Assembly: GCA_963664325.2 (NCBI GenBank)
Contig: CAXXDQ010000003.1
Coordinates: forward strand, 800,001 to 864,000
DNA from: Desulfomonilia bacterium
GTDB lineage: Bacteria > Desulfobacterota > Desulfomonilia > UBA1062
DNA: 64,000 nucleotides
Reading direction: 5' to 3'
In this document: piece after piece, positions 49,732 to 64,000 of the stretch
How the letters are laid out: every line of letters begins with the position of its first letter
Numbering within the stretch: position 1 is the stretch's first letter
Made by a program: the position numbers and the translations under genes
The notes under the pieces: generated by a model
What the model saw: the letters and a program-made list of their open reading frames with translations, nothing else
What the model was told of the DNA's origin: nothing
Database searches by the model: none

Positions 49732-51126
49732 ATGAAAAGAAGAATGTTTCTGATCTTGTTGTTAGCGGGATTGGTTATAGCTGCAGGGCTATCTGGGTGC
49801 ATTTTCTCGACCTCTCCTGACTCCAGCAAGGGCATATTGATGAAGCCCGGAGAGACAAAGGTTTTCAAGGTCAACGGCGCGAACCTCAATTCGTCCGTGA
49901 CCCAGTGCAGCTGGTTTATCGACAGGAAGGACGGGAGTCCCAAAGAGGTCATCGAGAGAACAGACCATATAGAATTCACAGCCAATCCCGAAGGCGAAAA
50001 GTACAACAGGGTAGTAATCGAGTGTGCTTTTTACAGGTTGATGTGGGTCCCTCCCGAAGGCGGAGGCGGCGGAGGCTGGGTTTTCATAGAAACAAGCAGA
50101 AAGACATGGAACGTCTGTGTAGCCAGGAACACCGCCCCTGTATGGCAAGGCGATTTCTACTTGAGTAACAGTGCGGATATGCAGGCGCTGGATGGCTATT
50201 CTGAAATCACCGGCTCGGTGTATGTCATGGAAACAAAATTGAAAAGCCTGGAGGGATTGATTGCTCCCAGCAGGATTGATGGAAGCCTTGTAATAATTGA
50301 AAACCCTGTCTTGAAAAACCTTGCCGGTCTTGAAGGTCTTGCGTCAGTAGGAGAAGATCTGAGAATCAGCTCCAATGATTCTTTGAAGAGCCTTTCCGGT
50401 CTGGAAAATCTTTCATCTGTCGGCCGTTTTGCCAGAATCGAGTGGAATGACTCGCTGGAAAACGTGTCCGGCCTTGAAGGTCTGACGGTTGGCGATACGC
50501 TTTGGATCGAAGTAAACAATGACCTGAAAAGCCTTTCAGGCATGAAAAACGTCACGGCTTCTGATTTGTTTATTATGAATAATGACTCTTTAACAAGCCT
50601 TTCGGGTCTAGAGAACATAACCGCACGGTATATGTGGATATACAACAATCAGAGTATGGCGGACCTGTCCGGCGCAGCTAATGTCAAAGCCTGGCAACTC
50701 GACATCGACAACAACTACAGCCTGGCAAGCCTGTCCGGCATCGGGAATATTGAATTCGACTCGTTGAGCCTAAAGGAGAACCATAGTTTGACGAGCCTGT
50801 CCGGCCTTGAGTATCTGACATCCGCACCCGTAAGTATAACTATTGAAGACAATATGGCTTTGACAGATCTTTCCGGCCTCAGAAATCTGACCTTTGCCTG
50901 GTGCCTGGAGATAAGAGGAAATTCCTCCCTGGCGGCATTGGGGATGGACTCTCTTCAGAGAGTGGATTGTTTATTCGAGATAACTGACAACCCCAAGCTT
51001 TGCACATCACTGGCCGAGGCTTTCAGGGACCAGCTCCTTGCGAGGGGAGGCATCGGGGGAGGTGAAGGATGCTTCATATCACCCTTTGTAATAATTGATT
51101 CCAACAAGGACTGCAGCGGGTCTTGA
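49732..51126 (+). CDS. Lipoprotein with L-domain/LRR-like repeats, paralog 3
   Basis: LSGC lipobox, MKPGETKVFKV, most repeats of the three, C-terminal NPKLC..NKDC cap. Confidence 0.8.
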   Translation: MKRRMFLILLLAGLVIAAGLSGCIFSTSPDSSKGILMKPGETKVFKVNGANLNSSVTQCSWFIDRKDGSPKEVIERTDHIEFTANPEGEKYNRVVIECAFYRLMWVPPEGGGGGGWVFIETSRKTWNVCVARNTAPVWQGDFYLSNSADMQALDGYSEITGSVYVMETKLKSLEGLIAPSRIDGSLVIIENPVLKNLAGLEGLASVGEDLRISSNDSLKSLSGLENLSSVGRFARIEWNDSLENVSGLEGLTVGDTLWIEVNNDLKSLSGMKNVTASDLFIMNNDSLTSLSGLENITARYMWIYNNQSMADLSGAANVKAWQLDIDNNYSLASLSGIGNIEFDSLSLKENHSLTSLSGLEYLTSAPVSITIEDNMALTDLSGLRNLTFAWCLEIRGNSSLAALGMDSLQRVDCLFEITDNPKLCTSLAEAFRDQLLARGGIGGGEGCFISPFVIIDSNKDCSGS

Positions 51127-56157: not shown

Positions 56158-57420
56158 TCAAGACAAGCTTGATATTACAGTTTTTATGAGTTTAGTCAGA
56201 TTGGAAAGCCCGCCTGATAATCTTTTTATATACAGCATTGAGATGCTTTTTGATTTTTGATCCTTGTAACGTTTTTTCATAAAGGAGGACGAAGGGAAGG
56301 CCGCTTCAAAAACAAACTTCACCTTCTGCTTCAAAGGCAGCTGTTTTATTACGTACAGGTACTGCCTGGTCGATGTCTTCATCGGCTGGGAGTTGAGCTT
56401 GAGGATGAATGCATTTCTGTTTGAATTCAGGCGGCTTTCAACCGGAAGGGCTTTGCCGAAAAGTTCTTCACAGATACGTGATGCAAACATGAGGATATCC
56501 GTCAGGCCGAGCTTTTCAAAAATGCCTGAAAGCTCGTCCCAGTCGATCAGGTGATTCCATTTTTCCGCGATGAAATATGTTTCATAAAAGTGAAACAGTC
56601 CCGAGACAGCTGTGCCGTGGCAGTAATATACGTGCAGTATCTGATGGATAAGGCAGACCGTATGCGAAAGCATAAAAAGCCCCGGGATATTTTGGAAAAA
56701 TCTGTTATCCGGTATGGGCACAAGCTGTTCAAAAACCCAGCTGTTAAAGTCAAATCCTTTTTGCTGATATTGCTTGAGGAGCTTCCAGTGAAGTTCGATG
56801 ATCAGACCGTTTGCTGCAGTATTTCTTATCATCAGGTGTTTATCTTCAAGGATAGAGGATGACACGGGCCCCGAATGGGTTTTGTCTTCAACTAAAACAC
56901 TGTATCCGGCATTCTTCAGCTTGTCAGCAACCGCATTCAGGTTTTCATCACTGACGAGCAGGTCTGTATCGCACATATTTCTCAGAGATGTGTCTTCATA
57001 AAGAGTTAAAGCCATTACGCTGCCTTTGAGCATAATGACAGGCTGAAACACAGGCAGGACAGCAGGGAAGACGTTTCCTGAGAGCTCTTTATAGCGCAGT
57101 TCGTTTGTATGCTTTATTCGCATTCTCATGGCGCTGAAATTAAGCCATATATCCATGGGAATCTGTTCAAGAAGGGTTTTCAATTCGGGTTTTTTGCTGT
57201 TCATCAATGCCGCAACACCTTCACCAAGCGCTACTCTTTCAAAAAGCCGCCAGTCGTCAGCCGAGTACTCGGTCCAGGCAGCTTCATTGCACCTGTCCGA
57301 GAGGCATTTGCAGATGTCGAGGTAGACCTTCAGCAGATTATCTGCATTGTCATAACGCTCTTCAAGGGCCTCAAGAGGAATGTTCGTATTCTTTGGTCTG
57401 CTCTTTCCATGATCTGGCAT
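56158..57420 (-). CDS. Nucleotidyltransferase family protein (NTP_transf_5-like)
   Basis: MLKG..LY..LRNMCDTDLLV (DxD), IELHW, ILH; start uncertain, overlaps the ABC gene end. Confidence 0.8.
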   Translation of the reverse strand: MPDHGKSRPKNTNIPLEALEERYDNADNLLKVYLDICKCLSDRCNEAAWTEYSADDWRLFERVALGEGVAALMNSKKPELKTLLEQIPMDIWLNFSAMRMRIKHTNELRYKELSGNVFPAVLPVFQPVIMLKGSVMALTLYEDTSLRNMCDTDLLVSDENLNAVADKLKNAGYSVLVEDKTHSGPVSSSILEDKHLMIRNTAANGLIIELHWKLLKQYQQKGFDFNSWVFEQLVPIPDNRFFQNIPGLFMLSHTVCLIHQILHVYYCHGTAVSGLFHFYETYFIAEKWNHLIDWDELSGIFEKLGLTDILMFASRICEELFGKALPVESRLNSNRNAFILKLNSQPMKTSTRQYLYVIKQLPLKQKVKFVFEAAFPSSSFMKKRYKDQKSKSISMLYIKRLSGGLSNLTKLIKTVISSLS

Positions 57421-59242
57421 ACATGCCGCCCTTTTTTATGAGTTCATCATGAGTTCCTGATTCAACAATACTGCCTTTATCCATTACATGTATAATATCA
57501 GCCTGCATGGCCGTGGTGAACCTGTGGGTTATGATCAACGAGGTCTTTCCCCGAGCAAGAGCTTTAAACCTTTTGAGCCAGTCGTTTTCAGCCCACGAAT
57601 CCATGGAGCTTGTCGGTTCGTCAAGCATCAGGATTGCCGAGTTTCTCAAAAAAGCCCTCGCAAGGGCAACCCTCTGCCATTCCCCCAGGCTCAGGTCCGA
57701 ACCGCCGAACCACTTTCCGAGAACGGTTTCATAACCATTGGGAAGTCTTGAAATCGGGACATCGGCACCCGATGAGACCGCAGCCCTTTTTATATCATCC
57801 AGACCAGGTCCGGATTCCATACTGCCAAAGGCGATATTATCAAATGCCGTTGCATTGAAATGAACCGGTTCCTGAAAGAGCACGCTTATCCTTCCCCTGT
57901 GCCTTTTCAAATCCAGATCCTTCATATCGACACCGTCTAGAAGCACCCTGCCGCTTTCAGGGTCATAGAACCTGCATATGAGTCTGGTAAGAGTGCTCTT
58001 GCCCGCTCCGTTCGGGCCTACAATGGCTGTAGTTATGCCTGCTGGTATCTTAATGCTGAATTTCTTTATGACGTGATCTGCGCCGCAGGGGTATCTGAAA
58101 GTTGCATTGTCGAATACGATACCGTCTTTAAGGGAAGAATCGAATTCCAAGGGTTCAGCAGGGTTCTTCACCGTTGGCTCGATGCCGAAGAATACGAAGA
58201 GGTCGTCAACGAACATGCTGTTCTTGTATATAGTTCCAACATTGCCCAGTACATTTTTCATCAGACCCTGACCCTGGTTGAATGCCTGGTAGAGCATTGC
58301 GACTTCTCCCAGGTTGGCCTTTCCGTGTGCAGCCCTTAAAAGAATCCATATAACTGCAATTCCTATCACTGCCATGCCGAAAAGTTGAGCAGCGAATTCT
58401 GCCACGGCCTGCTCCCTGGTAAGCGCAATCTTTTCGTTTCTCAATACGGCCCTCAAGTTCTGATAACTTTTCCTGAAACTGTCACCCAGGCCGTAAAGCC
58501 TTATTTCCTGTGCGGAGTTCCTGTGGGTAATCATATGGTCGTAATAACCGGCCATCCTGGAGTCGGGCGTTCTCATTATTCTCCAGCTGTTCATCTTCCT
58601 CGAGTAGTAGCCTATTATGAACAGTGCGGGAATTGTGCCCACGAATAAGAGGACAGGCAGCAGAACTCCGAATGAAAAAAGTATGCCTGCCATTGCAAAA
58701 AGGGTGATGCAGCTCTGTACGAGCATGCCCAGGTTGTCGAGCAGAGTCTGCGGCATGTTCTTGGCATCGTTCTGCGCCCTGTAAAGCTTATCGAACGATT
58801 CCGGGGATTCGAAAAAGGCCATGTCCATCTCAAGGGCTTTTTCGTGGATCCTGTTTGTCATGGTGTCCTGTATGATTTCCGTCTGCTTTATTTTTACAAG
58901 TTTCTGTGCAAAACCGGCGATACTGTTTGCCAGATATATGATAATAAACAGCAGGGCCAGAGATACTGTTTTCGAGGCGTCGGTTCCCCTCCCCGAAATA
59001 GTAATGGTCAGGCTGTTTATGAAGGCTTTTGTCAGATACACGGTTGCAACCGGAAGAATGCCCTGAACGATAAGAAGGCACGCCCACAGTATCGTCCATT
59101 TACGGGCGATGTCCCAGACAAGGGCGGTAGCCTTGAAGAGGTTCCTTGTCAGCAAACTTATATTGTCCCAGATTTCTTTCGGGCTTTTGAATATCTTTTC
59201 ATCCACAAAGAAAACTATCTCATTAGATTTGATTCGATACAA
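57371..59242 (-). CDS. ABC exporter, fused permease + ATPase, no C39 peptidase domain
   Basis: TM domain then GPNGAGKST, LSLGEWQR, LDEPTS, ITHR; real start may be slightly downstream. Confidence 0.92.
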   Translation of the reverse strand: MYRIKSNEIVFFVDEKIFKSPKEIWDNISLLTRNLFKATALVWDIARKWTILWACLLIVQGILPVATVYLTKAFINSLTITISGRGTDASKTVSLALLFIIIYLANSIAGFAQKLVKIKQTEIIQDTMTNRIHEKALEMDMAFFESPESFDKLYRAQNDAKNMPQTLLDNLGMLVQSCITLFAMAGILFSFGVLLPVLLFVGTIPALFIIGYYSRKMNSWRIMRTPDSRMAGYYDHMITHRNSAQEIRLYGLGDSFRKSYQNLRAVLRNEKIALTREQAVAEFAAQLFGMAVIGIAVIWILLRAAHGKANLGEVAMLYQAFNQGQGLMKNVLGNVGTIYKNSMFVDDLFVFFGIEPTVKNPAEPLEFDSSLKDGIVFDNATFRYPCGADHVIKKFSIKIPAGITTAIVGPNGAGKSTLTRLICRFYDPESGRVLLDGVDMKDLDLKRHRGRISVLFQEPVHFNATAFDNIAFGSMESGPGLDDIKRAAVSSGADVPISRLPNGYETVLGKWFGGSDLSLGEWQRVALARAFLRNSAILMLDEPTSSMDSWAENDWLKRFKALARGKTSLIITHRFTTAMQADIIHVMDKGSIVESGTHDELIKKGGMYARSWKEQTKEYEHSS

Positions 59243-59344
59243 CCTGTTTTTGGGGACATGATTGTTTCATGGTATTGCCATCCGGGTATAAATTCTGTAA
59301 GTCTGAATTTGTTGGGACGCAAATGATAATATTTGAGGGTTATT

Positions 59345-59527
59345 ATGAAGAAGGAACCATGGAAAAAACCTGAATTGATTGTCCTGGTGAAAAACCAGGC
59401 TGAAGAGGCCGTATTGAACGGATGCAAAGGTGGCGGTTCCACAACAAGCTTTTTATCACATAATGATAATTGTCATTCAGATGCTCCAGCCTGCACAACA
59501 TTATGCAGTTCTCCGCTAGCAAGCTGA
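59345..59527 (+). CDS. RiPP precursor peptide 1
   Basis: MKKEPWKKPELIVLVKNQAEEAVLNGCKGGGSTTSFLSHNDNCHSDAPACTTLCSSPLAS; GAGG RBS; homologous to three other peptides in the cluster. Confidence 0.85.
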   Translation: MKKEPWKKPELIVLVKNQAEEAVLNGCKGGGSTTSFLSHNDNCHSDAPACTTLCSSPLAS

Positions 59528-59591
59528 ATCGTGGATCAAATTCTGTTTCAATCTGAATTTGATAAGCAAAATCATATGGAGATAAAATAAG

Positions 59592-59795
59592 ATGAGAAAA
59601 GTAAGCAGAAAGAAAATAAGGACCGAGCCAGAGATGACCGTAATAGTCAGGAACATGCCTGAAGAAGCCGTTTTAACGGGATGCAAGAATGGCCCTGTAT
59701 ACACCGTGTCGGCTAATGATTACTGAGGGGGCTGTTATGCCCTTGGGGCATACAATCCTTGTCAGAACATATGCAATGCTTTGCAGGCTTCATAG
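59592..59795 (+). CDS. RiPP precursor peptide 2 with in-frame TGA at 59724-59726
   Basis: MRKVSRKKIRTEPEMTVIVRNMPEEAVLTGCKNGPVYTVSANDY*GGCYALGAYNPCQNICNALQAS; GGAG RBS; homology continues past the TGA to TAG. Confidence 0.7.
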
Positions 59796-59822
59796 ATACG
59801 ACCATAAAAATGTCTTGAAATA

Positions 59823-60881
59823 TTGAATCGCTCCACGGCATGCATGAAGATGAATATTAAGATGGATCAAACTATTCAGGAAGACCGGCCTTCGCAATAT
59901 ATATTTCAGGGAGGAGAACTTCATCTTTCAAACTTAGGCCAGCTCGAGTTGCTGCGAGCAATGATGGAGCGCCGTGTTCCATTGCGCACGATGGTCCGCG
60001 GATTCAGCATGCATCCGTTCATCAGGGACGGGGATGTGCTCGTTATTTCGCCTCTAAACGGAAGGAAGCCTTCTCACGGTGATGTGGTTGCATTTACACA
60101 ACCGGTTATGGGAAGGCTCGCAGTTCACCGCATTGTCGGCAGATCAAAGTCGGGCCTGATTATACGCGGAGACAATTGCCATGAAGCGGACAGCGTCGTA
60201 ATGGCGGATCGCATACTGGGGAGAGTGACGCGCATCGAACGTTGCGGACGGACTGTCCGTACCGGTCTGGGCTATTCCGGCATGCTGATTGCAGCATTAA
60301 ATAAAGGTGATCGTTTGATGCGTGTAAAACATGTCATCAATACTCCCCGCCGGGCAGCAAGCTATGCGCTCAGGTACCTGCAGGCGGTTTCCTGCTATCG
60401 ACTTCTTCTCAGAAGACTGGCATTGGCAACTGTTATCGAAAAGGCCGATGAAAGCGATATGGAAGCCGTTCATAAGCGCTTCAATCCGTATAGTCCGTAT
60501 CGAAAGCAGCCAGATAATCCAGAAGTAACCAACTGGGTTGCCAGGCGCTCAGGCAAAGTACTTGGCTTCATACAGCTTGTGTATCATCCCGAAAAGCATT
60601 TCCCATGGGTTGGGTTCTGGCTTTTTTCTCTTCATGTATGGAGTTTATACCGAGGGTTTGGCGTAGGCGAAAAGCTTGCCCGCCGGGTTATTGAAAAAGC
60701 TGTCGAAATGGGTGCCCAAGAGCTCAACCTTGTTGTTTATGAAGACAACCTGAGCGCCATCAGGCTATATGGTAAACTCGGATTTGTGCATGCAACACTG
60801 CCAGGTCTCGAACCGATGTTTTTATCCGAACAGCAAAGGACCGGGCGAAGAAGAATAGTCATGCAAAAGCAATTGGGTTGA
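59823..60881 (+). CDS. S24/S26 signal-peptidase-like domain fused to GNAT acetyltransferase
   Basis: GFSMHPFIRDGD, GDVVAF, VHR, RGDN (S26-like Ser/His); C-terminal YRGFGVGEKL and NLSAIRLYGKLGF (GNAT motifs); start uncertain. Confidence 0.8.
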   Translation: MNRSTACMKMNIKMDQTIQEDRPSQYIFQGGELHLSNLGQLELLRAMMERRVPLRTMVRGFSMHPFIRDGDVLVISPLNGRKPSHGDVVAFTQPVMGRLAVHRIVGRSKSGLIIRGDNCHEADSVVMADRILGRVTRIERCGRTVRTGLGYSGMLIAALNKGDRLMRVKHVINTPRRAASYALRYLQAVSCYRLLLRRLALATVIEKADESDMEAVHKRFNPYSPYRKQPDNPEVTNWVARRSGKVLGFIQLVYHPEKHFPWVGFWLFSLHVWSLYRGFGVGEKLARRVIEKAVEMGAQELNLVVYEDNLSAIRLYGKLGFVHATLPGLEPMFLSEQQRTGRRRIVMQKQLG

Positions 60882-61044
60882 ATACCCTATAAGCATAACA
60901 CCAGATGGATGTTGTTTCCTGCAGCTTCAATTATCCGGCAGTAATTTTTTTGTTTTCCTCGATCATCAGAGCTAACCTTCACTCCATGACTCGTTTCGAT
61001 TTCTGCCGGTGTTTCGGCTCTCGACGAGGTGCTTCTGGAAGAGA

Positions 61045-61221
61045 TTATGATTGCACATCCCCACTGCAAACAGGACATTCTTCTTCGCCGCTGATCTGGC
61101 ATTCTACATTCGTGTTATTCGGGCCCTCAAGCAAATATGGCCTTTTGCACGCGGCGAGTATACTTTCAGCACTCTTAATACGCACTAACGCAATCAATTG
61201 GGGAACATGCCACTGCCTCAT
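61045..61221 (-). CDS. RiPP precursor peptide 3
   Basis: MRQWHVPQLIALVRIKSAESILAACKRPYLLEGPNNTNVECQISGEEECPVCSGDVQS; GGGAG upstream; same leader and Cys pattern. Confidence 0.82.
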   Translation of the reverse strand: MRQWHVPQLIALVRIKSAESILAACKRPYLLEGPNNTNVECQISGEEECPVCSGDVQS

Positions 61222-61340
61222 ACAAGCAATCATCTCCCTTACGCTTTAAGATACCATATGCTGTTAATTGATATTCCTTCCGACAAAAATCAACGATAAG
61301 TATAAAATATCAATCGATCGTCAGAAAGCAAGAAAAAACA

Positions 61341-61382
61341 GAGTTCACAGTTCAGGGTTAAAGGCTGAAGGTTCACAGTTCG
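61341..61382. repeat. Degenerate heptamer tandem repeat
   Basis: GAGTTCA CAGTTCA GGGTTAA AGGCTGA AGGTTCA CAGTTCG. Confidence 0.55.
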
Positions 61383-61433
61383 TATTATATGGGTGGTCGG
61401 CGGGGACGGTCCCGGTTGCGGTGCGCTAAGCGT

Positions 61434-62546
61434 TTAAGGGCTGTTTCCTCCGTCCCTAATCGCTGCTGCCCTTGCGTGAGCCAACTCGCAGAAGTAGGGA
61501 GTTGCGCCGTCCAGTTCGCCTGTCTCCAAGTGCGCATGGGCAGGGCACCACAGGCACAGGTTTACTATTGGGCATTTGCGGCATGAGTCGAGGAAAGATC
61601 TTTTGTCAGAACGCATATCCCGGATTTTCGGAACAGCTTCCCAAGCGTCTTTCAGTGCGACCTTTCTTAGATCGCGGGTCGTTTCATCGGCCCACAACGA
61701 TGAGCAGAGGCGGAACCTTCCGTCATAGCTTACATTAAAGCTCCCGTTGCCTGCACCGCAGTGGAACAGGTGGTTGCAGTCGATGTGGCCGAACTTATCG
61801 TTTATCAATAAGCTGCAATTTTTTATCAAAGCGCCGAACCGCTCTTCATCTGACTTTTCCAGCTCGATCATCTCTGCAGGGGTCAAACGTTCAGAACGGA
61901 TTTCAGCGTTTCTTTTCTCGTCGCCGTCGAAACGCAGATGAAGCTGCGGATCGAACCTGAAAAAGTCTTTTGTCCGGGCGCGGCAGAAATCGGCAATTCT
62001 TTTCTGCTCGTGCAGGTTTGACCTGATTGCCATTGTCTTAAGCCTGATCCTGATGCCGTTTTTTATAAGCAGGTCAAGTCCAGTCATGAATTTTCCGAAT
62101 GATCCGGGGCGTCTGGTAACGCACTCATATGTTTCCTTTGTCACGCCGTATACTGTCGTTTCAATGTCACGCGGCGGGAATTTTTTAAAAAGCCTGATGT
62201 GTTCTTCATTCAGCAGGGCGGCGTTTGTAAAAACCGAAACCAGCAGTCCCTTTTTCTTCAGCATCATATAAATTTCGGTAAAATCCTGCCTTAGAAGAGG
62301 TTCTCCACCTGTTAACAAACACCAGACGGCTCCCATATCCACGGCCTGTGCGGCTATATCCGCGATCTCTCCGACGCTTAATTCTCCGGATAGGGCATCA
62401 TTGTCGCCGGCGGGCAGATTGATATAGCAGTGGCGGCAGTTCATATTGCATCTGGCGGTTATTTCGATATCAAAGGATATCGGAGAACGTTTTGACTTAA
62501 GCCTGTCCCAGAGGCCGAATCGCTGTATCTCAATCTTTTCAGACAC
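61434..62546 (-). CDS. Radical SAM/SPASM peptide maturase 1
   Basis: CNMNCRHC, TGGEPLL, FTN; SPASM-type cysteines CGAG..C..CRKC..C..CPA..C. Confidence 0.92.
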   Translation of the reverse strand: MSEKIEIQRFGLWDRLKSKRSPISFDIEITARCNMNCRHCYINLPAGDNDALSGELSVGEIADIAAQAVDMGAVWCLLTGGEPLLRQDFTEIYMMLKKKGLLVSVFTNAALLNEEHIRLFKKFPPRDIETTVYGVTKETYECVTRRPGSFGKFMTGLDLLIKNGIRIRLKTMAIRSNLHEQKRIADFCRARTKDFFRFDPQLHLRFDGDEKRNAEIRSERLTPAEMIELEKSDEERFGALIKNCSLLINDKFGHIDCNHLFHCGAGNGSFNVSYDGRFRLCSSLWADETTRDLRKVALKDAWEAVPKIRDMRSDKRSFLDSCRKCPIVNLCLWCPAHAHLETGELDGATPYFCELAHARAAAIRDGGNSP

Positions 62547-62555
62547 TTGTGAGGT

Positions 62556-62855
62556 TCAATTTTTTATGGAAAGGATGCGGCGGTTGACCATCTCAGAGGC
62601 AAAGCCTATTACATCCTTTTCTATCTCACCGGTATCAGATGAAAACTCGTCGGAAAGTTCAGCCGCAACTTGTCCAAGTGATTTCCCTCCGTCAAGCTTC
62701 TTCCATATGGCCTTGCCGGTATCGTTCAATGTGTACAATTCGTCGTCCGCATCTCCAATGCCTGCGATGAGCGGTACGATGATGATATCGCCCTCGATCT
62801 CCCGTGAAACTATGTCATCCGATAGTGTACAGATAGTTTTAGCATCAATATTCAT
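62556..62855 (-). CDS. PqqD-family RiPP recognition element
   Basis: VSREIEGDIIIVP, LYTLNDTGKAIWKKLDG, DVIGFASEM; GGGAG RBS. Confidence 0.9.
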   Translation of the reverse strand: MNIDAKTICTLSDDIVSREIEGDIIIVPLIAGIGDADDELYTLNDTGKAIWKKLDGGKSLGQVAAELSDEFSSDTGEIEKDVIGFASEMVNRRILSIKN

Positions 62856-62881
62856 ATTTAGCAGTCTCCCGTTCCAATATA

Positions 62882-63058
62882 TTATGAAGGATTCCAGGTG
62901 CTGCAGTTAGGGCAACCAGGCCCCGTGTCGTTACATAGCCTGTCACTGATTGATGGACCCTCGTGGCCTCCGCCTTCGTCCTTGCAGGTGGCAAGGACAT
63001 TTTCTTCCGTATTGCTTCTCGCCAGTACTATAAGCTCGGGCTTCTTCCATCTTTTCAT
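62882..63058 (-). CDS. RiPP precursor peptide 4 (not in the ORF track)
   Basis: MKRWKKPELIVLARSNTEENVLATCKDEGGGHEGPSISDRLCNDTGPGCPNCSTWNPS; GGGAG RBS; directly upstream of PqqD. Confidence 0.88.
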   Translation of the reverse strand: MKRWKKPELIVLARSNTEENVLATCKDEGGGHEGPSISDRLCNDTGPGCPNCSTWNPS

Positions 63059-63113
63059 CAGATATCTCCCTTTATTATAAATTAATTTTCAGTATCAAAA
63101 TTTCATTGTTTGT

Positions 63114-64000
63114 TCAATTGTGAACATATTCATCGGACTGACCGATTCTCTCCTTCCAATCCTCAACCTCCCAGCCGAATTCATTTTTAGCAAGCCAGCC
63201 CATCCACCGCGCCTGAGCATGTGCAGCCTCACAGAGATATTTGACTGGGGTATCAAGAGTCTGATGTTCGCTCCATGACTTTGCGGGGCACTGTTCGCAG
63301 AGTCCCTTCAGAAAACATAATGCACAGCGTTTCAGATATTCCGGGTTTTTCGCACGCATTTCTCTCAGATCCCTAAATTTGTCCAGGATTGTTTCAAGTG
63401 AATACTTGCATGTATCATATGTCAATTCAGGCGCCCGTACACCCATGCAGGGTTGTGCGGTGCCGTATGCATCGATGCACATGCCGCAGCCTGCCCCGCA
63501 CCTGAACAGATTTTCGCCCGGCGGTCCCATGAATTTCGATGCGAACTCGCTTGTGCTCTTTCTGAATTTATCAGCATCCCTTGTGAGGATTCTCAAGCCC
63601 TCCTCAGGTGACAGGCGGATTGATCTGATCATTGCGTTTTTTTCAACGTCATCGCATCTGTTCCTTAGGTCGAAGAACATCGAATAGCTCGGCCTTTTCG
63701 TCATCCATCGTATTGTCTCGGCCCATGCCTCAAACTCGTCCATCTCGTATCTGTTCTGAGGCAGAAGCGCCGACTTTATAATGAACGGGACTCCACGCTT
63801 GATAAGCAGATCGACACCGCGCCGGTACTGTTTGAACGAGCCTTTCGAGCGTGTCACAGCTTCATAGGATTTCTCATGCATGCCGTAGGAGGTTATTTCG
63901 ATTGTCACAAGCGGCGGGACGCGTTTGAAAAGCTCGGCAAGTCTCTCATCGATAAGCCTGGCATTAGTGAAAACAAGGACTTTCATGCCCAGCTTTCTTG
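63114..64000 (-). CDS. Radical SAM/SPASM peptide maturase 2 (5' end outside window)
   Basis: Paralog of 61434..62546: VFTNARL, IEITSYG, CGAG..PC, CALC..LCEQCPA..LCEAAHA. Confidence 0.88.
   Translation of the reverse strand, partial: RKLGMKVLVFTNARLIDERLAELFKRVPPLVTIEITSYGMHEKSYEAVTRSKGSFKQYRRGVDLLIKRGVPFIIKSALLPQNRYEMDEFEAWAETIRWMTKRPSYSMFFDLRNRCDDVEKNAMIRSIRLSPEEGLRILTRDADKFRKSTSEFASKFMGPPGENLFRCGAGCGMCIDAYGTAQPCMGVRAPELTYDTCKYSLETILDKFRDLREMRAKNPEYLKRCALCFLKGLCEQCPAKSWSEHQTLDTPVKYLCEAAHAQARWMGWLAKNEFGWEVEDWKERIGQSDEYVHN

Follow-up and report, generated by a model that had tools for sequence, protein, structure and literature searches.

The window analysed here, a stretch of 64,000 nucleotides from a Desulfomonilia bacterium (contig CAXXDQ010000003.1, positions 800,001–864,000), contains towards its end a gene cluster for peptides made by ribosomes and modified after translation (RiPPs), which probably combines cross-linking by radical S-adenosylmethionine (rSAM) enzymes with the tailoring toolkit of the phosphorylated lasso peptides and of the linear polyphosphorylated peptides (LPP). 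The products most likely are small secreted peptides with cross-linked Cys residues and a phosphorylated last Ser residue. The cluster extends from about position 56158 to 66508, i.e., 2.5 kb beyond the window end; the next 17 kb of the contig were also fetched, and coordinates beyond 64000 are given in window numbering (L002 114–1277 ends at 64277, L002 1294–1470 corresponds to 64294–64470, and L002 1487–3508 to 64487–66508).

A preliminary description of the window had named ten features of this region, all of which were recovered at their coordinates from the list of open reading frames (ORFs) and the Pfam and NCBIfam searches. It had taken the system to comprise twin rSAM genes and four precursors. 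Two paralogous rSAM genes indeed flank a PqqD gene and a precursor gene, but the system has three rSAM enzymes and a kinase, the third enzyme being encoded beyond the window. Likewise, full-length alignment confirmed that the four small ORFs are homologous members of one family, but one of them (precursor B) has a premature TGA codon, a fifth (precursor E) is located beyond the window, and four orphan precursors occur elsewhere in the genome. In the sequence beyond 64000 the cluster continues with the remainder of the second rSAM gene, precursor E, and a gene for a third rSAM enzyme fused to a kinase. The outlined RiPP-type pathway, in which a precursor would be recognized, cross-linked, freed of its leader, acetylated, modified at its tail and exported, is supported by the domains of the encoded proteins and by their co-occurrence.

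Precursor peptide family

The five precursors of the cluster align end to end and thus are homologous. Precursor A (59345–59527, + strand) comprises 60 amino acids when translated from the second ATG of its ORF (59333–59527), which is preceded by GAGGG 7 nt 5' of the start. The ORF of precursor B (59592–59726, +) ends at the TGA; read-through to 59795 would yield a peptide of 67 amino acids (59592–59795). Translation of precursor C (61045–61233, –) probably starts at the second ATG at 61219. Precursor D (62882–63058, –; 58 amino acids) has the sequence AGGGAG 8 nt 5' of its start, and precursor E (64294–64470, –; 58 amino acids) is situated upstream of the second rSAM gene.

The common leader reads W-x-K-P-E-L-I-V-L-V-R-x-x-x-E-E-x-V-L-x-x-C-K and is followed by a variable middle part, three Cys residues and a final Ser. 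Within the hypervariable core, the Cys pattern is C-x4-8-C-x2-3-C-x5-Ser-COOH, with a fixed C-x5-Ser tail. None of the five precursors matched any Pfam or NCBIfam family, the model for SCIFF peptides (six Cys in 45 residues) included, which is in agreement with the preliminary view that they fit no named class and are not six-Cys SCIFF peptides. Of 190 candidates, 182 proteins matched a profile built from the five sequences at E ≤ 0.01; all of these are unnamed or annotated as "hypothetical", and a Pfam domain was found in none. The ESM Atlas matches of precursor D were likewise only unnamed "hypothetical protein" clusters. An exhaustive profile search against 1.84 billion representatives returned 3450 matches at E ≤ 0.001 and 1263 at E ≤ 1e-10, these being representative clusters at 50% identity.

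Sequence statistics were compiled for the 120 matches listed, two of which are the window's own. The leader motif is present in 119 of these 120, and the terminal residue is Ser in 107, Thr in 12 and Gly in one. Three core Cys residues occur in 96 and two in 20 of the 119 motif-bearing sequences; exactly six residues follow the last Cys in 108 of the 118 with core Cys, and the spacing of the last two Cys is 2 or 3 residues in 95 of 117. The core, counted after the CK pair of the leader, is mostly 28–35 residues long. A G/S-P pair 7–8 residues before the first core Cys is more weakly conserved, and the rest of the core varies freely. If the invariant CK is counted, the precursors have a total of four conserved Cys.

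In this genome, nine precursor genes of the family were found, five in the cluster and four elsewhere (C3:1033103–1033282, +; C5:185584–185757, +; C5:181907–182080, –; C2:160031–160198, –). No rSAM genes were apparent near the four orphans when the ORF lists of their three loci were inspected by eye, without a homology search, and we treat the orphans as being served in trans by a single enzyme set. An ORF of 351 codons for a possible transposase (L014 7829–8884, –) lies about 0.2 kb from the orphan at C3:1033103. Orphan precursors occur in other genomes as well, one metagenome-assembled genome (MAG) supplying three of the loci (L020, L028, L032).

Linkage of precursors and enzymes across genomes

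To follow the association of precursors and enzymes, one genome per species was scanned for WxKPELIVL, which gave 65 stretches; the 53 that were confirmed belong to 50 distinct loci. The window proteins were compared with every ORF in them, a score above 300 bits being taken to denote a cassette rSAM. Such an rSAM gene is located beside the precursor in 29 of the 50 loci, so that the co-occurrence proposed in the preliminary description was borne out. Since 20 of the loci are shorter than 10 kb, the counts for individual genes are minimum counts: rSAM1 in 25 loci, PqqD in 24, rSAM2 in 20, the peptidase in 19, the kinase domain in 18, the rSAM3-kinase fusion in 11, NTP_transf_5 in ten and the ABC transporter in nine. 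The remaining loci resemble the orphan precursors of this genome. The conserved order is (rSAM3-)kinase, rSAM2, precursor, PqqD, peptidase(-GNAT), rSAM1, ABC and NTP_transf_5, and the NTP_transf_5 homologues are located at the same end of the cassette in their ten loci. The order in the window deviates solely by an inverted block comprising precursors A and B and the peptidase gene, an inversion which is shared with a close relative (L042, L061). The 50 loci contain 69 precursor ORFs, of which 67 match W..P[EDQK][LM] and 65 have a C-terminal Ser or Thr.

The linkage is observed across many phyla. The source MAGs are labelled Anaeromyxobacter, Desulfomonile, Syntrophaceae, Smithella, Desulfatiglandales, Planctomycetota, Bacillota, Chloroflexota/Anaerolineae, Actinomycetota/Thermoleophilia, Aminicenantes, Omnitrophota and Gammaproteobacteria, and archaeal precursor loci are assigned to Methanothrix and Methanomicrobiales. 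Family precursors were present in nine of the 301 genomes sampled from the bacterium's phylum, its own included, and in none of three genomes of the same taxonomic family; the distribution thus is patchy. In five of the eight other precursor-bearing genomes of the phylum, a kinase-like gene with a sub-threshold ScmC score occurs within 5 kb of the precursor.

Seven of the loci (L017, L024, L026, L028, L031, L042, L061) score at least 260 bits against the peptidase-GNAT fusion. Judging from these high scores, the GNAT half appears to be present in about seven of the 19 peptidase genes and may be regarded as accessory. A trend was also seen in about 20 loci, where a free-standing kinase with two rSAM genes tends to go together with two-Cys cores, and the rSAM3-kinase fusion with three-Cys cores.

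Enzymes of the cluster and proposed pathway

The three rSAM/SPASM enzymes are encoded on the minus strand at 61434–62546 (rSAM1, 370 amino acids; Radical_SAM 75.4 bits, SPASM 21.9 bits), 63114–64277 (rSAM2, 387 amino acids, of which the window end leaves 63114–63998; completed by the ORF in the fetched extension) and 64487–66508 (rSAM3-kinase, 673 amino acids; Radical_SAM 87.4 bits). All three contain the CX3CX2C motif and a C-terminal CX2CX5CX2C motif. They share 29–38% pairwise identity, rSAM2 being 38% identical to rSAM1. An N-terminal RiPP recognition element (RRE) is found in none of them, which fits use of the discrete PqqD-type RRE encoded between rSAM1 and precursor D (62556–62855, –; 99 amino acids, PF05402 52.9 bits). 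A profile of this protein matched PqqD, the lasso B1 proteins TbiB1 and TfuB1, and PqqD-family chaperones in the PDB. In complex predictions, PqqD with a precursor scored 0.47 and the best control 0.00; the contacts agreed to at least 93% across runs, and the pLDDT of the partner was at least 48. Of 80 solved complexes and 110 mismatched pairs, 58 and two, respectively, reached the mark applied to these predictions, and scores of 0.60 or less comprised only seven of the 80 solved complexes plus both of the mismatches that reached the mark. As look-alike RRE-leader complexes have been solved, the pass may reflect memory or likeness, and the prediction gives weak support to the pairing.

The C-terminal 313 residues of rSAM3-kinase, which follow the rSAM/SPASM half, contain a P-loop. 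By sequence, this part matches ScmC (E 1e-7, 31.6 bits) and HprK_rel_B (E 0.003), and GHSxAGK and LCDD are invariant in an alignment of 16 kinase homologues (16/16). An AlphaFold model of the domain reached a pLDDT of 91.3 and a pTM of 0.88. Foldseek searches with this model retrieved PEPCK (E 5.6e-8) and HprK/P (1kkl_B, E 9.1e-6). With VIA-align, PEPCK aligned over the whole model with a Z score of 12.4, and four HprK/P entries aligned with Z scores of 11.1–11.6 and rmsd values of 2.9–3.5 Å over 118–127 residues, covering model residues 148–313; the remaining matches were further PEPCK entries (Z 10.9 and 6.3), a complex I subunit (Z 9.4) and other P-loop proteins (Z ≤ 5.6). On the strength of the predicted fold, we conclude that the domain fused to rSAM3 is a kinase of the HprK/PEPCK superfamily.

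The peptidase-GNAT fusion (59823–60881, +; 352 amino acids) has an N-terminal half of the S24/S26, signal-peptidase-I-like type, which scores 24.5 bits with Peptidase_S24 in Pfam (cut-off 23.3); its top NCBIfam match is archaeal-type signal peptidase I (TIGR02228), with 42.4 bits under the cut-off of 51.85. The GNAT half matches Acetyltransf_1 with 57.2 bits. An MsbA-like ABC exporter of 623 amino acids is encoded by 57371–59242 (–). Its seven Pfam matches comprise ABC_membrane and ABC_tran only, a C39 peptidase domain not being found among them, and its top NCBIfam match is MsbA (279.9 bits, under the MsbA cut-off). The last gene, 56158–57420 (–), codes for an NTP_transf_5 nucleotidyltransferase of 420 amino acids (PF14907, 93.3 bits versus a cut-off of 31.2), which had no NCBIfam match.

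From this set of genes we infer the following chemical steps, their order, the cleavage site and a function as secreted products. The discrete PqqD protein would bind the leader at W-x-x-P-x-L and hand the precursor over to the enzymes. Its core Cys residues would next be modified by the three rSAM/SPASM paralogues, possibly one enzyme per Cys, most probably into thioethers of the sactionine or ranthionine type. The HprK-type kinase domain on rSAM3 may phosphorylate the near-invariant C-terminal Ser or Thr, which is the presumed target because it is the sole conserved hydroxyl residue and has a fixed distance from the last Cys. The NTP_transf_5 protein could add a further group, e.g., a hexose, to the terminal phosphate. 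The signal-peptidase-like domain would cut off the leader, either after the conserved CK or about 16 residues past the Trp (the LppA register), and the fused GNAT domain might acetylate the newly exposed amine or the invariant Lys. Finally, the MsbA-like ABC pump would export the product. The single enzyme set of this genome would serve nine precursor genes.

Several observations weigh against this pathway or parts of it. Scans for promoters and terminators remained at chance level, and no operon boundaries could be derived. The cassette genes are absent from the fetched DNA of 19 of the 50 precursor loci, the NTP_transf_5 homologues in distant loci score merely 24–45 bits, and the link between rSAM number and Cys number has exceptions among its roughly 20 loci. 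When the kinase profile was compared with PDB sequences, mostly P-loop matches to ABC proteins were obtained, and HprK only at E 0.019. According to the excerpted text of the LPP paper (PMC13381572), the LPP kinase places several phosphates on core Ser3, the C-terminal residue not being its target, and LppN was inactive in the heterologous host. All three rSAM enzymes score under the cut-off of every characterised NCBIfam family; the top matches are heme b synthase, ScmE/F, mycofactocin maturase and StsB, with 73–107 bits versus cut-offs of 265–625. Among solved structures, SkfB and MoaA come closest in sequence, at only E 1e-8. Since no rSAM family cut-off was reached, the thioether proposal rests on the conserved Cys residues and on analogy. 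By the same scores, none of the enzymes reaches the cut-off of a characterised non-peptide family, membership of which the preliminary description had named as a finding that would speak against a RiPP system.

Nature of the proposed cross-links

SPASM enzymes catalyse many different reactions, and the cluster may be a RiPP cluster in which the rSAM enzymes epimerise residues, form C-C or C-O links or alter the Cys otherwise, the Cys residues serving in disulfides or as metal ligands. The curated models for thioether maturases were indeed far from reached (PapB 42.7 versus 340 bits, StsB 77.1 versus 625, AlbA 59.9 versus 850), and the four conserved Cys, including that of the invariant CK, are an even number that would suit two disulfides. 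However, conservation of the core is mainly confined to the Cys and the terminal Ser, making the Cys the obvious targets of the enzymes; the number of paralogous rSAM enzymes, three, equals that of the core Cys, as would be expected if each Cys received one link, and sactipeptide maturases (StsB, SkfB) are among the matches. We therefore regard this alternative as rather unlikely, albeit as the most serious competitor. A SPASM rSAM enzyme that puts ranthionine links into a Cys-rich substrate is described in the excerpted text of PMC13692751, and by analogy with the maturases of sactipeptides and ranthipeptides, the products of the rSAM enzymes of the cluster most likely would be thioethers.

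In-frame TGA codon of precursor B

The TGA of precursor B is located at codon 45 (59724–59726), leaving an upstream product of 44 amino acids. Past it, the frame remains open for 22 codons, and a read-through product would again have the three Cys at the family spacing and the terminal Ser. Precursor B might hence be the precursor of a selenopeptide, with TGA read as selenocysteine in a U-G-G-C motif. The genome has the means for such decoding: tRNA-Sec was found, SelB scored above its cut-off, and three genes with one in-frame TGA each, which the organism reads as Sec, are present (FdhA twice, and SelD). In addition to the open frame with all family features kept, a 7-bp hairpin (59736–59752) begins 9 nt past the TGA (z –2.1), which is missing in a TGG orthologue (z –0.26). 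On the other hand, all four orthologues (P0009, P0010, P0012, L042) have Trp at this position, encoded by TGG, one transition away, and not Cys. The loop of the hairpin is UUG, as opposed to GGUCU, GGUCU and GGU in the three genuine elements of the genome; there was no Rfam match, and no other family member in the 50 loci and 301 genomes has an internal TGA. In view of the Trp in the orthologues and of a hairpin loop that does not resemble those of the genuine elements, the codon probably reflects a recent TGG-to-TGA nonsense change, and selenocysteine incorporation is improbable.

Relation to the SynChlorMet cassette

The preliminary description had noted that two rSAM genes with PqqD recall the SynChlorMet (SCM) cassette, which is defined bioinformatically by the NCBIfam models TIGR04248–04251; no paper on it was found by name or accession. 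If the cluster were a plain SCM cassette (ScmC/D/E/F), it would need no separate description. The layout is indeed alike, as an HprK-like protein, PqqD and two or more rSAM/SPASM enzymes are shared and ScmE, ScmF, ScmC and ScmD are among the matches of the corresponding cluster proteins. All four models nonetheless stayed far below their cut-offs: ScmE (TIGR04250) gave 86.2, 56.2 and 54.4 bits and ScmF (TIGR04251) 79.1, 82.1 and 77.6 bits for the three rSAM enzymes, versus 400 in either case, ScmC (TIGR04249) gave 31.6 bits on the kinase domain versus 125, and ScmD (TIGR04248) 26.5 bits on PqqD versus 100. Fourteen orthologues from four other loci failed as well, the ScmE scores in other phyla being 84–91 bits.

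A search for ScmC in the 301 genomes of the phylum yielded 13 genomes above cut-off, with one hit in this very genome on another contig (C7:475913–476506, 154 bits). The rSAM enzymes of that cassette are 23–30% identical to those of the window, the precursors beside true ScmC belong to a different family, and a precursor of the window type is present in none of the 12 other genomes with true ScmC. In the true SCM cassette of this genome (C7:475000–481100; L073 9199–15083), an ScmC-S24-type peptidase fusion is accompanied by a pair each of rSAM/SPASM and PqqD genes, and its two or three precursor genes encode a Y-E-A-P-K-V leader followed by a longer core of Cys repeats.

Some traits do bring the two systems closer to each other. 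The true SCM cassette of this genome likewise fuses its kinase, there to an S24-type peptidase; in genome G033, true ScmC adjoins an S24 peptidase, an ABC pump and NTP_transf_5; and SCM-type precursors bear a Y-x-x-P-K-V leader of the same [Y/W]xxP kind. The G033 locus (L074, G033:C1:368000–373000) has a true ScmC of 301 bits together with the S24 peptidase, NTP_transf_5 and an ABC pump scoring 471 bits to that of the window, and it also holds a Cys-bearing peptide with a Y-T-E-P-K-L leader. Homologues of the window rSAM enzymes were not found there (phmmer, E ≤ 1e-3, 20 kb fetched), and L074 looks like an LPP-like, rSAM-less version in this phylum. Because the SCM models failed, the precursors differ and both systems coexist as separate loci, we regard the window cluster and the SCM cassette as sister systems of different families, and their identity as quite improbable, slightly more so than a selenopeptide.

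That the peptides are precursors of an intracellular redox cofactor akin to PQQ or mycofactocin instead of exported products is very improbable: PqqE (83 bits) and mycofactocin maturase (88 bits) are among the rSAM matches, and PqqD is named after the PQQ pathway, but both scores are under the cut-off (265), one genome encodes nine different precursors with hypervariable cores, and the cluster includes its own ABC exporter and a leader peptidase.

Flanking genes

The genes past rSAM3-kinase (L002 3885–5366 and 5412–7064) have no homologues in the 50 precursor loci and therefore are placed outside the cluster. Beyond the NTP_transf_5 end, the far flank contains carA/carB and a NUDIX gene. Further away in the window, 49732–51126 (+) codes for a predicted lipoprotein with leucine-rich/receptor-L-type repeats and a Gly run, which is unrelated to the cluster.

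Comparison with LPP, phosphorylated lasso peptides, sactipeptides and ranthipeptides

The closest counterpart of the recognition and tailoring genes is the LPP system, lppA-K-B-S-D-N of Paenibacillus alginolyticus, as presented in the excerpted text of Popov et al. (Nat Commun 2026, PMC13381572). LppK, LppB, LppS, LppD and LppN are a kinase, an RRE, a signal-peptidase-I-like peptidase, an MsbA-like pump and an NTP transferase, and all five parts of this toolkit are present here as signal-peptidase-I-like peptidase, discrete RRE, HprK-like kinase, NTP transferase and MsbA-like transporter. The LPP RRE recognises the leader motif [Y/W]xxPx[L/V/I/F/A], and cleavage by LppS requires presentation of the precursor by the RRE; the WxxPxL motif occurs here as W-K-K-P-E-L in precursors A and D and in variants in B, C and E. 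As in the window cluster, the number of precursors per LPP cluster ranges from one to several, and they are conserved at the N-terminus but variable at the C-terminus. The near-invariant C-terminal Ser/Thr (119 of the 120 listed precursors) may be an indirect hint of phosphorylation of a core Ser by the kinase.

There are clear differences, too. LPP clusters are reported from Bacillota in the excerpts of that paper, and its text nowhere mentions radical SAM. The window cluster has three rSAM/SPASM enzymes and a GNAT domain on top of this set, and its kinase forms part of an rSAM protein. The remainder of the leader is KPELIVLVR..PEEAVL..CK here, versus YxxPxVLxHQxIxFETxxS in LPP; the cores are short with Cys, and the conserved Ser is the last residue and not Ser3. 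LPP peptides are set apart as linear, with no cross-linking enzyme, which is at odds with three rSAM/SPASM enzymes conserved together with the precursors. The part of the pathway comprising recognition, peptidase, kinase, nucleotidyltransferase and exporter hence is no longer undescribed, as it matches the LPP toolkit.

The phosphorylated lasso peptides paeninodin (PadeK) and pseudomycoidin (PsmK/PsmN) resemble the system in having an HprK-type kinase for the C-terminal Ser, an NTP_transf-like enzyme that decorates the phosphate, a discrete PqqD-type RRE, a WxxP leader and an ABC exporter. As stated in the excerpted text of PMC6993621, PsmK phosphorylates the C-terminal Ser of pseudomycoidin, and one or two hexoses are attached to this phosphate by PsmN, which belongs to a "family of uncharacterized nucleotidyltransferases"; the NTP_transf_5 protein of the cluster is the counterpart of LppN and PsmN. 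On PF14907, merely an unrelated phosphonate paper was found in the literature. The difference lies in the rSAM enzymes, which are found in place of the cyclase, and in a serine peptidase in place of B2. In line with the preliminary description, a lasso cyclase (Asn-synthetase-like) was not among the Pfam matches of any gene from 56158 to L002 3508, and neither was a transglutaminase-like B2 peptidase.

With the sactipeptides and ranthipeptides (AlbA, SkfB, StsB, PapB, CteB/SCIFF, CrpC), the cluster shares rSAM/SPASM enzymes, an RRE and leader-bearing Cys peptides, and StsB, AlbA and PapB are among the matches. Apart from the scores, which fall short of the maturase models, it differs in that the RRE is discrete and not fused, and in the additional kinase, nucleotidyltransferase, serine peptidase and GNAT domain. 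The SCM cassette shares the HprK-like protein, PqqD, paired rSAM/SPASM enzymes and Cys-bearing precursors with a YxxP-type leader, and genes for an S24 peptidase, an ABC pump and NTP_transf_5 accompany it in the examples examined; the scores for its four models, another precursor family and its separate locus in the same genome set it apart. Literature joining HprK or HPr kinase with radical SAM (plus RiPP, nucleotidyltransferase or PqqD) was not found.

Taken further than the probable combination of rSAM cross-linking and phosphorylation toolkit, these comparisons raise the possibility, which we put forward tentatively and at somewhat less than even chances, of a new RiPP class in many bacterial phyla and methanogenic archaea. 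In this class, up to three dedicated rSAM/SPASM enzymes would each form one Cys cross-link in a hypervariable core kept in register by the fixed C-x5-Ser tail, the terminal Ser would be phosphorylated and its phosphate decorated, and up to nine different precursors per genome would be processed by one enzyme set. With SCM as a sister, it would form one superfamily with LPP and the phosphorylated lasso peptides on a shared chassis of leader, RRE, kinase, peptidase and nucleotidyltransferase. If this holds true, rSAM cross-linking would be joined to phosphorylation and phosphate decoration in one pathway, with a cross-linked phospho-(glyco)sylated product that has no described counterpart, and SynChlorMet would gain a testable function by analogy. 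The precursor family itself is very large, spans bacteria and archaea of anoxic habitats and has had no family model, name or known product; its hypervariable cores on fixed Cys and Ser anchors form a natural scaffold library. The leader-recognition system known from LPP and lasso peptides would then represent a portable chassis for quite different core chemistries.

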